Shown here one piece after another: positions 47,373-64,000 of a DNA stretch of 64,000 nucleotides. Made by a program: the position numbers and the translations under genes. The notes under the pieces were generated by a model. That model had not been told where the DNA came from. It did not search any database and worked only from the letters and a program-made list of their open reading frames with translations. Numbering within the stretch: position 1 is the first letter of the stretch; every line of letters begins with the position of its first letter. This DNA comes from Escherichia coli (GTDB lineage: Bacteria > Pseudomonadota > Gammaproteobacteria > Enterobacterales > Enterobacteriaceae): assembly GCF_024700885.2 (NCBI RefSeq), contig NZ_CP117016.1; one strand, 5' to 3'.

Positions 47373-47966
47373 ATGCAAAAAGTTGTCCTCGCAACCGGCA
47401 ATGCCGGTAAAGTGCGTGAGCTGGCGTCGCTGCTTAGCGACTTCGGTCTTGATATCGTGGCCCAAACAGACCTCGGCGTAGATTCCGCTGAAGAAACCGG
47501 CCTGACCTTTATCGAAAACGCGATTCTGAAAGCGCGCCATGCGGCAAAAGTGACCGGTTTACCGGCAATTGCCGACGACTCCGGTCTGGCGGTAGATGCG
47601 CTGGGTGGCGCGCCGGGTATTTACTCCGCGCGTTATTCCGGTGAAGACGCGACCGATCAAAAGAACCTGCAAAAACTGCTGGAAACAATGAAAGACGTAC
47701 CGGACGACCAACGTCAGGCGCGTTTCCACTGCGTGCTGGTATATCTGCGTCACGCGGAAGATCCGACTCCGCTGGTATGCCACGGCAGCTGGCCGGGCGT
47801 GATTACTCGTGAACCAGCGGGTACTGGCGGCTTTGGTTATGATCCAATCTTCTTCGTACCTTCCGAAGGAAAAACCGCTGCCGAACTGACCCGCGAAGAA
47901 AAGAGCGCCATTTCCCACCGTGGTCAGGCGTTGAAACTGCTGCTGGACGCTTTACGTAATGGTTAA
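47373..47966 (+). CDS. rdgB: dITP/XTP pyrophosphatase
   Basis: 197 aa, [21 protein letters not shown]... Confidence 0.93.
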
Positions 47967-60626: not shown

Positions 60627-62762
60627 TTACTTCAACACATAACCGTACAATCGTTTCATGCCATCTGCATCGGTTTCGCTATAGACACCTTGCAGCTCCG
60701 GCGAAAATCCCGGCAACAAATTCACCCCTTCTTCCAGCGCAAGGAAATAACGTTGGACCGCCCCGCCCCAGACTTCCCCGGGCACCACGCAAAGCACGCC
60801 TGGTGGATAAGGCAACGCCCCTTCTGCCGCAATTCGCCCCTCGGCATCACGAATCCGCACCAACTCCACTTCACCGCGAATATAAGCACTATGCGCATCC
60901 TGGGGGTTCATCACCACTGACGGGAAACTCTGCTGGCGGAACATCGCTTTTTGTAGGTCTTTGACGTCGAAACTGACATACAGATCGTGCATCTCCTGAC
61001 ACAACTGGCGCAGGGTGTAGTCGCGATAGCGCACCGGATATTTGTTATAAACGCTCGGCAACACCTCAGCCAGCGGCGAGTCATCCTCAATATGCTGTTC
61101 AAACTGCGCCAGCATCGCCACCAGTTGCGCCAGCTTCTCGTGGCTTTCCGCCGGCGTTAATAAGAACAGAATGGAATTGAGATCGCACTTCTCCGGCACA
61201 ATGCCGTTCTCACGCAGATAGTGCGCCAGAATCGTCGCCGGAACGCCAAAGTCGCTATATTCGCCAGTTTCGGCATTGATACCTGGTGTAGTGAGTAACA
61301 GCTTGCACGGATCAACAAAATACTGATCCACGGCATATCCTTCAAAGCCGTGCCACTTCGCCCCCGGCTCAAAACTGAAAAAACGACGGTCACTGGCTAA
61401 CACTGATGTCGGATAATCCTGCCACAATTTGCCATCAACAACGGGCGGGATAAACGGGCGGAACAGCTTACAGTGCGCAAGAATAGCCTTGCGCGCTTCA
61501 ATCCCTATCACAACGCACTCAGCCCACAGCCGACGCCCACTCTCCCCTTCATGAATTTTGGCGTTAACGTCCAGCGCGGCAAACAACGGATAGAACGGGC
61601 TGGTAGAAGCATGGAGCATAAAGGCATTATTCAACCGCTTATGCGGGCAAAAACGCGCCTGTCCGCGGATATGGTTATCTTTTTTATGGATCTGCGACGT
61701 CTGTGAGAATCCCGCCTGCTGTTTGTGCACTGACTGGGTCACAAAGATCCCCGGATCGTTTTCGTTAAGTTCTAACAGCAGCGGCGAGCTATCCGCCATC
61801 ATCGGGATAAACTGTTCGTAACCGACCCACGCGGAATCAAACAGAATGTAATCACACAGATGCCCAACGGTATCGACCACCTGACGGGCGTTATAGACAG
61901 TGCCGTCATAGGTTCCCAACTGAATAATCGCCAGGCGAAACGGGCGCGGCAACTCAGCTTTTTCTGGCGCAACGTCGCGAATTTGCTGGCGCAGATACTC
62001 TTCATTAAAACAGTGCGCATCAATACCGCCAATGAAACCAAACGGGTTACGTGAAGCTTCCAGATAGACCGGCGTCGCCCCCGCCTGAATCAGCGCGCCG
62101 TGATGATTCGACTTATGGTTGTTACGGTCGAAGAGCACCAGATCGCCACGCGTTAACAGCGCATTCGTCACCACTTTATTCGCTGCCGATGTGCCGTTCA
62201 GGACAAAATAGGTTTTATCGGCATGAAAGACTTTGGCTGCGAATTTCTGCGCATCCTTCGCCGATCCTTCATGAATAAGCAGATCGCCCAATTTTACGTC
62301 AGCGTTACACATATCGGCGCGAAAGACGTTCTCACCAAAGAAATCGTAAAAATGGCGTCCGGCAGGATGCTTTTTAAAAAACGCACCATGTTGATGTCCA
62401 GGGCAAGCAAAGGTGCTGTTGCCCATCTCAACGTACTGCGTCAGCGTGTCATAAAACGGTGGCAGCAAATTCTCTTCATACTGACAGGCTGCGGATTCCA
62501 GCTCCAGCCACTGCTGCTCGTTGCCGTTGATTACCGCCGTAACGCCCGCAGGTAATTCAACAACATGTTCGGAATACAAAAACACCGGTAGATGAAAACC
62601 GGTGCGCTTAAGCAACGTAAGAATGCCACTGCGACTATCCGCAGCGGTAATGACGACTGCCGCGACGTCCGTAAAATCAGTATCTCCCAACGCCACCACG
62701 CGGCGATGAGTAGAAAGTCGGGATACCAGTTCACTACTGGCGGCAATATTCATTGATTTCAT
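60627..62762 (-). CDS. speC: ornithine decarboxylase (constitutive)
   Basis: ORF 60627..62822; start at MKSMNIAASSELVSRL; 711 aa. Confidence 0.95.
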   Translation of the reverse strand: MKSMNIAASSELVSRLSTHRRVVALGDTDFTDVAAVVITAADSRSGILTLLKRTGFHLPVFLYSEHVVELPAGVTAVINGNEQQWLELESAACQYEENLLPPFYDTLTQYVEMGNSTFACPGHQHGAFFKKHPAGRHFYDFFGENVFRADMCNADVKLGDLLIHEGSAKDAQKFAAKVFHADKTYFVLNGTSAANKVVTNALLTRGDLVLFDRNNHKSNHHGALIQAGATPVYLEASRNPFGFIGGIDAHCFNEEYLRQQIRDVAPEKAELPRPFRLAIIQLGTYDGTVYNARQVVDTVGHLCDYILFDSAWVGYEQFIPMMADSSPLLLELNENDPGIFVTQSVHKQQAGFSQTSQIHKKDNHIRGQARFCPHKRLNNAFMLHASTSPFYPLFAALDVNAKIHEGESGRRLWAECVVIGIEARKAILAHCKLFRPFIPPVVDGKLWQDYPTSVLASDRRFFSFEPGAKWHGFEGYAVDQYFVDPCKLLLTTPGINAETGEYSDFGVPATILAHYLRENGIVPEKCDLNSILFLLTPAESHEKLAQLVAMLAQFEQHIEDDSPLAEVLPSVYNKYPVRYRDYTLRQLCQEMHDLYVSFDVKDLQKAMFRQQSFPSVVMNPQDAHSAYIRGEVELVRIRDAEGRIAAEGALPYPPGVLCVVPGEVWGGAVQRYFLALEEGVNLLPGFSPELQGVYSETDADGMKRLYGYVLK

Positions 62763-63138
62763 AAGCGCAAACCCGTTTCGGGGAAGTAAGAATACCGGAC
62801 AAGGTGGAAAACCCTGCCCCATGAGATATGGGTCAAACTGGTCACCAGCTCCGACCGCCAGACATCAGTAAAAGCAGAAACGCTCTGATTTTACTGTTGT
62901 CCTGCAGTGAGCGTGCGTTAACTTCACCGCATGAGCAGTAGCATAAAAAGAGAAGAGTTTCGCGCGAAACGGCGATAAGCGAGAGAATGTAAGGAGGTGG
63001 CGTACATCGGGCAAACTCCGTACAGAGAGGAGAAAATTCGCGCAATCATGGCACCTTTCGCTAAAGCGTGCAAGCCAGGACTTTGCGAACAAACAAGCCA
63101 TCGACGGCACCAAACGGTCATAATAAGAAAATCAGACA

Positions 63139-63867
63139 ATGCAGCTAACAGGAACTCTTGTGGTCATCGGTCCTTTTATCAACGCAAGTGCAGTATTACT
63201 GGGTGGCGTGCTCGGTGCACTGCTTAGCCAACGCTTACCGGAACGTATCCGCGTCTCCATGACATCAATTTTTGGTCTGGCATCGCTGGGGATTGGTATT
63301 TTACTGGTGGTGAAATGCGCCAACCTTCCGGCGATGGTTTTAGCAACCTTACTCGGTGCATTAATCGGCGAAATTTGTCTGCTGGAAAAAGGCGTCAATA
63401 CCGCGGTCACCAAAGCACAAAATCTGTTTCGCCACTCACGTAAGAAGCCAGCGCATGAATCTTTTATTCAGAATTATGTCGCGATTATTGTCCTGTTTTG
63501 CGCCAGCGGCACCGGGATCTTCGGGGCGATGAACGAAGGGATGACCGGCGATCCGAGTATTTTAATCGCCAAGTCATTTCTTGATTTCTTTACGGCGATG
63601 ATCTTCGCCTGCTCGCTGGGTATTGCGGTATCGGTGATTAGTATCCCATTACTGATCATCCAGTTAACGCTGGCGTGGGCTGCCGCGCTGATATTACCGC
63701 TGACCACACCGTCGATGATGGCAGACTTCAGCGCCGTAGGCGGTTTATTGCTGCTGGCAACCGGATTACGCATCTGTGGCATTAAAATGTTCCCGGTGGT
63801 CAACATGCTTCCAGCACTCCTTCTGGCAATGCCGCTTTCCGCCGCCTGGACCGCCTGGTTTGCTTGA
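63139..63867 (+). CDS. yqgA: DUF554 inner membrane protein YqgA
   Basis: 242-aa ORF; alternative GTG start at 63160 would give 235 aa. Confidence 0.8.
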   Translation: MQLTGTLVVIGPFINASAVLLGGVLGALLSQRLPERIRVSMTSIFGLASLGIGILLVVKCANLPAMVLATLLGALIGEICLLEKGVNTAVTKAQNLFRHSRKKPAHESFIQNYVAIIVLFCASGTGIFGAMNEGMTGDPSILIAKSFLDFFTAMIFACSLGIAVSVISIPLLIIQLTLAWAAALILPLTTPSMMADFSAVGGLLLLATGLRICGIKMFPVVNMLPALLLAMPLSAAWTAWFA

Positions 63868-63972: not shown

Positions 63973-64000
63973 GCCCGGATAGCTCAGTCGGTAGAGCAGG
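63973..64000 (+). tRNA. pheV: tRNA-Phe, 5' end only (truncated by window edge)
   Basis: GCCCGGATAGCTCAGTCGGTAGAGCAGG matches the 5' acceptor/D-arm of E. coli tRNA-Phe. Confidence 0.85.

Follow-up and report, generated by a model that had tools for sequence, protein, structure and literature searches.

A conserved leader ORF and three mutually exclusive RNA helices suggest leader-peptide control of speC in Enterobacteriaceae and Erwiniaceae

Polyamine synthesis influences growth, stress tolerance and virulence in enterobacteria. The ornithine decarboxylase genes speC and speF are paralogous; speC is described as the constitutive one, and the inducible speF is a textbook case of control by a metabolite-sensing nascent peptide. 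The 34-residue leader peptide SpeFL ends with arginine before the stop codon, a hairpin forms over the 3′ end of its ORF and a Rho loading site overlaps the ORF; ornithine induces ribosome stalling at the stop codon, which keeps Rho off the transcript. A comparable arrangement exists in tnaC-tnaCAB, where a tryptophan-dependent stall at the stop codon blocks loading of Rho. In mdtU-mdtJI the upstream ORF is needed for induction by spermidine, and transcription is subject to premature termination by Rho. The attenuators of trpL and hisL combine a leader ORF with exclusive 1:2, 2:3 and 3:4 helices, of which region 2 lies at the ORF end. The polyamine pathway also includes the upstream ORF of AMD1 (S-adenosylmethionine decarboxylase), encoding the peptide MAGDIS, for which only the last few residues and termination matter.

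Here we analysed the region between speC and yqgA in a 64,000-nucleotide stretch of Escherichia coli DNA (the window). That it contains a functional cis-regulatory element of some kind is very likely, and we consider it reasonably probable that it is composed of a divergent promoter region and a speC 5′ leader of about 276 nt, carrying the translated small ORF yqgH. Our best reading, made by analogy, is that yqgH is a cis-acting leader ORF and part of a leader-peptide attenuator of speC, with a layout like that of speFL-speF and tnaC. Similarly to speFL, yqgH is an ORF of about 30 codons in the long leader of an ornithine decarboxylase gene, it ends with Arg-stop, a hairpin involves its 3′ end in most genera, C-rich RNA overlaps the ORF, and the distance from the stop to the ATG of the enzyme gene is 160-260 nt. 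As in tnaC, the last codons and UGA may be the control point, with a putative Rho loading site at or near the ORF end. The similarity to mdtU is the link with polyamine metabolism, and MdtU is also encoded by a short ORF (34 codons) within a leader of similar layout (278 nt, stop about 106 nt before the gene), with the C-terminus as its most conserved part. The order of elements, a leader ORF followed by three exclusive helices with region 2 at the ORF end, is that of trpL and hisL.

In a preliminary description based on the window sequence, positions 62763-63138 were taken as the region between the two genes. Its left edge is correct, as it directly follows from the position of the speC start codon (Table 1). 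The right edge is not, because RefSeq starts yqgA at GTG 63160 and not at ATG 63139; across genera a Shine-Dalgarno sequence is retained in front of this GTG, unlike the upstream ATG, which is not conserved. This makes the intergenic region 62763-63159, with a length of 397 bp. An alternative start of speC at the in-frame ATG 62822, which would add 20 codons (731 vs. 711 AA), was rejected. This ATG, falling within the 5′ arm of hairpin P4, is replaced by GTG or GTT in other genera, and thus the annotated speC start at 62762 stands.

The same description pointed to three minus-strand ORFs of 67-82 codons, whose coordinates are borne out by the ORF listing, and considered the region to be non-coding. 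In 77 of 5000 dinucleotide shuffles (1.5%), every frame of one strand had a stop-free run of 67 or more codons. The minus strand has only 17% A, and its 11 stop trinucleotides vs. 13.6 expected do not represent a significant depletion. In cross-genus comparison, the pattern of three open frames was confined to E. coli and absent from the other genera. Taken together, this indicates that the long ORFs are a mild composition effect and not genes; the pattern goes only mildly beyond chance and is largely incidental. The earlier opinion that they do not encode proteins thus holds, as they are unconserved outside E. coli and owe much to base composition, and its suggestion of promoters was also apt, since promoter-like elements are present for both speC and yqgA. 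What has to be given up is the absence of coding sequence: the 27 codons at the 3′ end of the 71-codon ORF are yqgH, for which translation was detected by ribosome profiling and in a reporter-transposon screen. A conservation profile across Enterobacteriaceae had been proposed there as a check; the leader ORF and the RNA helices are deeply conserved, the long ORFs are not, and the 100 nt proximal to yqgA are poorly conserved. The conserved RNA resembles a speC mRNA 5′ leader rather than an independent small-RNA gene; the one terminator-like hairpin present, P4, is weak, though a fragment of an attenuated leader could accumulate.

Table 1. Features of the speC-yqgA intergenic region and its margins, in window positions
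Feature	Positions	Strand	Basis or remark
speC start codon	62760-62762	minus	product begins MKSMNIAASS
Hairpin P5, CCCCG-AAA-CGGG, 10 nt before speC ATG	62772-62783	minus	93% paired, one-sided changes only
Hairpin P4, GGGGCAGGG...CCTTGTCC, then weak T-rich run	62797-62820	minus	94% of cells paired
ORF	62828-62941	plus	37 aa (ORF listing)
ORF	62842-63045	minus	67 aa (ORF listing)
Region 4, GGCGGTCGGAGC, 3′ strand of basal P2 helix	62848-62859	minus	alignment-based pairing
Upper hairpin P2, GGACA-ACAGTAAAATCAGA / TCTGCTTTTACTGA-TGTCT	62860-62902	minus	96% paired
ORF	62865-63113	minus	82 aa (ORF listing)
Region 3, GCTCACTGCA	62903-62912	minus	partner is region 2 or region 4
Region 2, ATG-CGG-TGA (Met-Arg-stop)	62924-62932	minus	pairs with region 1 (most genera) or region 3
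yqgH leader ORF (b4785), 27 codons and stop, MYATSLHSLAYRRFARNSSLFMLLLMR-stop	62924-63007	minus	RefSeq CDS, Pfam PF23506
ORF	62924-63139	minus	71 aa (ORF listing)
ORF	62997-63227	plus	76 aa (ORF listing)
yqgH Shine-Dalgarno ACGGAG	63016-63021	minus	almost all loci have GGRG 5-12 nt upstream of ATG
Candidate extended -10 box TGcCATGAT of speC/yqgH promoter, then GC-rich discriminator TGCGCG	63045-63053	minus	cross-genus conservation
Candidate -35 box TTGCAC of speC/yqgH promoter	63068-63073	minus	TTGC conserved in Enterobacteriaceae alignment
Candidate -10 box CATAAT of yqgA promoter	63119-63124	plus	CATAATAATGC conserved in all genera with divergent speC and yqgA
yqgA Shine-Dalgarno AGGAAC and GTG start	63150-63162	plus	RefSeq, AGGA conserved

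The yqgH CDS is annotated in RefSeq at equivalent coordinates, between speC and yqgA on the speC strand, in both K-12 and the strain identical to the window. Pfam family PF23506 matched the window peptide with 51.1 bits and the K-12 peptide with 66.8 bits (gathering cutoff 27); it recognises only Escherichia sequences; the Citrobacter peptide scored E = 0.34 and the others examined gave no match. Translation of this ORF is known from previous work. As ORF22 it was found by ribosome profiling with Onc112 and retapamulin, where it served as an example of a clean start-codon signal, and the name yqgH was given because the protein could be tagged and detected (Weaver et al., bioRxiv 10.1101/511675). 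PIRT-seq also detected translation in the yqgH frame (PMC12350097). Our literature search found no paper giving yqgH a function or connecting it with speC regulation; the current K-12 RefSeq record names its product "protein YqgH", whereas the speF leader is called "leader peptide SpeFL".

Within E. coli, the stretch 62763-63138 (376 bases) was present in 5424 of 5426 complete genomes with 90-100% identity, and it is 100% identical in strain 1190. Changes concentrate in the 100 nt proximal to yqgA and in yqgH codons 17-23; the promoter box, the first 16 codons of yqgH and the whole downstream leader are almost invariant among strains. For a 106-nt block of this leader, identity to the window reaches 99% or more in 4919 of the 5424 genomes, and for the whole spacer in only 8. 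The YqgH peptide, the C-terminal half of which is hydrophobic in E. coli, differs between strains at 3-5 of its 27 residues, and the changes in the variable codons 17-23 include a deletion of two codons, the in-frame 6-nt deletion of ST131 giving a 25-residue version. In strain CH10982 the match lacks the 45 bases nearest to speC, and a copy of IS26 lies close to this end of it; the record of this strain has a second matching place. Two further copies of the spacer are located on plasmids. The tRNA-Phe gene pheV (63973-64000), a known insertion site of islands, is truncated where the window stops. It is followed by yghD and gsp genes in K-12, and by an IS110 remnant and kpsF in the strain whose sequence is identical to the window.

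For a broader comparison, 80 speC loci of Enterobacteriaceae and Erwiniaceae were used, one genome per species, from Escherichia, Citrobacter, Salmonella, Klebsiella, Kluyvera, Kosakonia, Buttiauxella, Cedecea, Pantoea, Erwinia, Mixta, Tatumella and other genera. All 80 open with a speC orthologue, and yqgA is the divergent neighbour only in part of Enterobacteriaceae. Most of the loci, from Escherichia to Pantoea, Erwinia and Mixta, share a common upstream layout. Read towards speC, it consists of a promoter-like box and, after 25-35 nt, a GGRG ribosome-binding site with an ATG, which opens an ORF of 18-37 codons that ends with ATG-CGG-TGA; then come a long, near-invariant hairpin of about 100 nt, a hairpin of variable sequence and a small hairpin immediately upstream of the speC start codon. 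In 52-53 of 62 loci, vs. 14% of shuffles, the frame opened by the first ATG after the predicted transcription start ended exactly at the conserved stop; in the loci that break this rule, the Shine-Dalgarno-proximal ATG is preceded within a few bases by a spurious one in another frame.

Among the 71 distinct leader peptides (18-37 AA), only the C-terminus is shared, with Arg at the last position in all 71, preceded by Met (66 of 71), Thr (54) and Leu (47). The terminal Arg codon is CGG in 71/71 and the stop is TGA in 69/71. One further locus has ATG-AGG-TAA, by which Met-Arg-stop is kept and the RNA pairing is weakened. The RNA of the ORF is C-rich and G-poor in all 71 cases (34% C, 21% G; C/G median 1.6, minimum 1.1), vs. 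a C/G of 0.95 in the remainder of the leader. The near-absence of Asp, Glu, Lys, Asn, Gly and Trp from the peptides reflects this bias, and the composition resembles that of a Rho loading site. Arginine makes up 13.5% of the peptides. Among the internal Arg codons CGA accounts for 22.5%, vs. 2.5% in the speC genes next to them, a difference that may reflect either programmed slow decoding or just the local CG-rich, G-poor context. Judged from its pattern of conservation, the leader ORF appears to be selected for being translated, rather than for encoding a protein that has its own function.

Some lineages have lost the leader module, which shows that it is dispensable. In the Enterobacter cloacae complex the ORF and the block are gone, and the promoter box and a remnant of helix 1:2 are kept; four Enterobacter loci have a CTCACC-N4-GGTGAG hairpin directly before speC. 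The module is also absent from two Pseudocitrobacter loci and two Pantoea lineages. Two lineages (L025, L064) lack the long hairpin block but still have the ORF ending in ...TMR-stop, so that the ORF is the more persistent unit. In Erwiniaceae, Buttiauxella and Cedecea the last 90 nt before speC are unlike those of Enterobacteriaceae and are conserved within the group, as seen in three loci taken as examples; the elements found there are GGGGAAnnTTCCCC, GTGCC-N4-GGCAC and CCACTCATCCTTGA...GGGGATTTGTG. In these leaders ATCC could mask the Shine-Dalgarno sequence GGGGA.

The promoter-like box in the speC direction, TTGCAC-N14-TGn-CAT[G/T/C]AT-TGCGCGAATTTTCTCC, spans 63073 to 63029, with a 17-nt spacer between the candidate -35 and -10 boxes. 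From Escherichia to Pantoea, hardly any change is seen in the aligned GGTGnCAT[G/T/C]ATTGCGCGAATTTTC, and the variation within the -10 hexamer affects only its least constrained position, which is the most variable one in real -10 boxes. The box, including its -35 part, is kept in the lineages that lost the leader module. A consensus promoter scan revealed no sigma-70 site above threshold on the speC strand; the candidate -35 box falls below this threshold, so it is conservation that argues for the assignment. The transcription start of speC and yqgH is predicted near 63038, about 31 nt ahead of the yqgH ATG, giving the leader length of about 276 nt, and from this conserved box together with the gene order we infer that yqgH is located on the speC mRNA. 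In K-12 coordinates the predicted leader spans 3,109,156 to about 3,109,431, and yqgH occupies 3,109,317-3,109,400 on the minus strand. The part of the Term-seq tables of Adams et al. available for comparison has no entry for speC. For the yqgA promoter no recognisable -35 box was found. We also considered an internal promoter TAAAAT in the conserved block, but its hexamer is lost in Erwiniaceae and its changes track the hairpin partner. Both speC and yqgA are listed among CRP targets by genomic SELEX (PMC3105977). The CRP-like site TGAGA-N6-TCAAA at 62825-62840, in a leader stretch present only in Escherichia, was not retained, as it is a weak match (8/10).

RNA structure was evaluated in 50 sequences with RNAalifold and explicit pair counts, using slid partners as controls. 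Around the yqgH stop codon three helices are mutually exclusive. In helix 1:2, CUCACC pairs with GGUGAG of the last codons and stop (90% of cells paired); in helix 2:3, UGCGGUGA(G) pairs with (C)UCACUGCA (92%); and in helix 3:4, GCUCACUGC pairs with GGCGGUCGGAGC to form the base of the long hairpin (93-94%). The slid controls for these helices gave about 40% paired cells. E. coli does not have helix 1:2, and helix 2:3 is present in its leader minimum-energy fold (z = -2.8). The near-invariance of regions 2-4 is expected if each of them must fit two partners. By the same token, ATGCGGTGA could be invariant purely because of its pairing with two partners, and constraints of RNA pairing could also explain the conservation of the C-terminal residues.

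Further downstream, the upper hairpin P2 shows double changes from A-U to G-C at two pairs, in 9 sequences each, and its many G-U pairs are sensible only for RNA of the minus strand; TTTACTGATGTC within it is nearly invariant from E. coli to Pantoea. Hairpin P4 has compensatory double changes at 8 of 9 pairs. It is the only terminator-like site in the consensus scan, though a weak one, and in other genera its U-run is weak and offset. Hairpin P5 holds the sole Shine-Dalgarno-like GGG before speC. Rfam 15 gave no match in 62763-63159, even with E-values up to 10 included. A covariance model built from the 50 sequences matched once per locus with 61-125 bits, also in loci outside the training set; the matches lie on the strand of speC, and 70-110 nt separate their ends from the speC start codon. 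No second element was detected in the 64-kb window, the speFL locus or the mdtU locus; the only other match in the window (47382-47447, minus strand; 19 bits, E = 0.05) is probably noise. A second copy of the block, for example at speA or speF, was likewise rejected, as blastn found one copy per E. coli genome. Two features suggested by the E. coli sequence were set aside. These were a long pairing of CTGGCGG with speC codons 7-9 in the E. coli fold, which is not kept in Pantoea, and a mini-ORF MSGGRSW (ATG-TCT-GGC-GGT-CGG-AGC-TGG-TGA; 62860-62883, minus strand) in the 3′ arm of P2, which has no Shine-Dalgarno sequence and varies in length between genera.

There are also differences from the described systems. 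YqgH and SpeFL share no sequence similarity: the HIRRXXH sensor motif is missing from YqgH, and PF10940, which gives 23.8 bits with SpeFL itself, matched none of six YqgH-type peptides. The body and length of YqgH are free to vary and only ...L-T-M-R is conserved; its stop is almost always UGA, whereas speFL takes any stop; and the RNA downstream of yqgH is near-invariant and forms three competing helices. TnaC has internal W12, D16 and P24 and a Pro end, none of which occur in YqgH. MdtU, ending with ...WRNAL-stop, is unrelated in sequence, and the covariance model misses its locus; homology of YqgH to either SpeFL or MdtU was thus looked for and not found. Unlike in trpL and hisL, there are no tandem regulatory codons in yqgH, only the Arg-richness mentioned above and one invariant terminal CGG. 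Also unlike in these attenuators, the 3:4 helix of the speC leader is not an intrinsic terminator: no U-run lies downstream, region 4 being followed by TGGTGACCAG, which means that the leader is not a classical intrinsic attenuator. The AMD1 peptide, for its part, is a eukaryotic hexapeptide with no RNA switch.

On these grounds we propose a working model, in which ribosome stalling, Rho dependence and the signal at yqgH are inferred. The features under selection would be the translation of yqgH, its C-rich, G-poor RNA resembling a Rho loading site, and the Met-Arg(CGG)-UGA end. Ribosomes on yqgH would cover the C-rich RNA of the ORF. Region 2 has two possible partners, region 1 upstream of it within the ORF and region 3 downstream of it, and region 3 may alternatively pair with region 4 and close the base of the long conserved hairpin. 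The time that a ribosome dwells at CGG-UGA would set whether region 2 is free for region 3, and this choice would decide both the formation of the 3:4 helix and the loading of Rho, and with them read-through into speC. What would probably be controlled in this way is the proportion of transcripts extending into speC, and we favour Rho-dependent attenuation, as in tnaC and speFL. An altered downstream folding or a change in speC translation is a possible but unsupported alternative output. When the ORF or a ribosome footprint at its stop was kept single-stranded in thermodynamic folding, the predicted accessibility of the speC ribosome-binding site in 36 species did not change (mean 0.41, 0.41 and 0.42), and for this reason a model of translational unmasking was rejected. 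Rejected as well were a programmed +1 frameshift at CGG-UGA, by analogy to antizyme, because the +1 frame, open for 26 codons in E. coli, is broken by single-base indels or stops in several genera, and read-through at CGG-UGA, which would end after 1-10 codons.

As for the signal, it is likely to be something that alters ribosome dwell at the last codon or stop, such as the supply of arginine or Arg-tRNA(CCG), ornithine or polyamines. The rare terminal codon, the Arg content of the peptides and the enrichment of internal CGA support an arginine signal. Conserved internal sensor residues were absent among the 71 peptides, and a freely varying peptide body, unlike the TnaC and SpeFL sensors, argues against a specific pocket for a small molecule. 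We regard the general model of a translation-coupled leader as fairly probable; the specific version, a metabolite-responsive stall with Rho as the effector, is put forward only tentatively. Under the general model, the "constitutive" speC would probably have leader-peptide control of its own.

Other explanations of the same observations were considered. The conserved block could be a self-sufficient RNA element, that is, a riboswitch-like aptamer, a binding site for a protein or small RNA, or a processing or stability element, with yqgH translation being incidental or serving only to keep Rho off. Its conservation in nucleotides exceeds that expected from structure alone, as seen for the P2 segment invariant from E. 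coli to Pantoea and in the identity of the block across those 4919 E. coli genomes, the covariance model is specific to speC upstream regions, and covariation in P4 is strong. We nevertheless find this explanation unlikely, since the reading frame, start codon, Shine-Dalgarno sequence and precise stop position of the ORF are conserved well above shuffles, the yqgH stop codon lies within the switching helices, L025 and L064 preserved the ORF with its terminal residues after loss of the block, and Rfam contains no matching family. That the whole region is an ordinary spacer with two promoters, in which all ORFs are due to chance, is harder still to maintain: such a spacer would account for the long unconserved ORFs, which are largely a product of chance and composition, and for the poorly conserved 100 nt next to yqgA, but two published methods have seen yqgH being translated, and the depth of conservation of the leader ORF and RNA helices leaves this explanation very little room.

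There is also the possibility that YqgH is a small protein acting in trans, adjacent to speC only by virtue of operon organisation. The protein can be tagged and detected, which is the origin of its gene name, a Pfam family exists for it, and the E. coli version has a hydrophobic C-terminal half. On the other hand, the 71 orthologous peptides all differ and share just their last 2-4 residues over a twofold range of lengths (18-37 AA), the Pfam family does not extend beyond Escherichia, E. coli strains themselves vary in sequence and by the two-codon deletion, and the composition, almost devoid of Asp, Glu, Lys, Asn and Gly, follows the nucleotide bias. A function in trans thus appears improbable, though slightly less so than the plain spacer, and the cis-acting leader ORF is the reading that we keep.

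What was already known here is the yqgH gene and its translation; new is a deeply conserved, speC-specific leader ORF with an RNA switch, for which we found no prior description. As far as can be told from sequence comparison, we would place it among the leader-ORF attenuators, as a new member with a putative function. In its fullest form, the proposal would be that speC is controlled across Enterobacteriaceae and Erwiniaceae by a leader ORF whose ..L-T-M-R end, rare CGG and UGA set ribosome dwell according to arginine, ornithine or polyamine status, flip a three-way RNA switch and gate Rho; this we regard as possible, with considerable doubt. The natural losses of the module in the Enterobacter cloacae complex, Pseudocitrobacter and some Pantoea offer ready comparisons. 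If the proposal is true, it would provide a function for yqgH, one of many orphan small ORFs from ribosome profiling, and a second, simpler system in which the end of a nascent chain and the stop codon control termination and Rho. Together with speFL and mdtU, it would mean that control by leader ORFs is common among polyamine genes, and the main polyamine biosynthetic route would also be tuned after transcription start.
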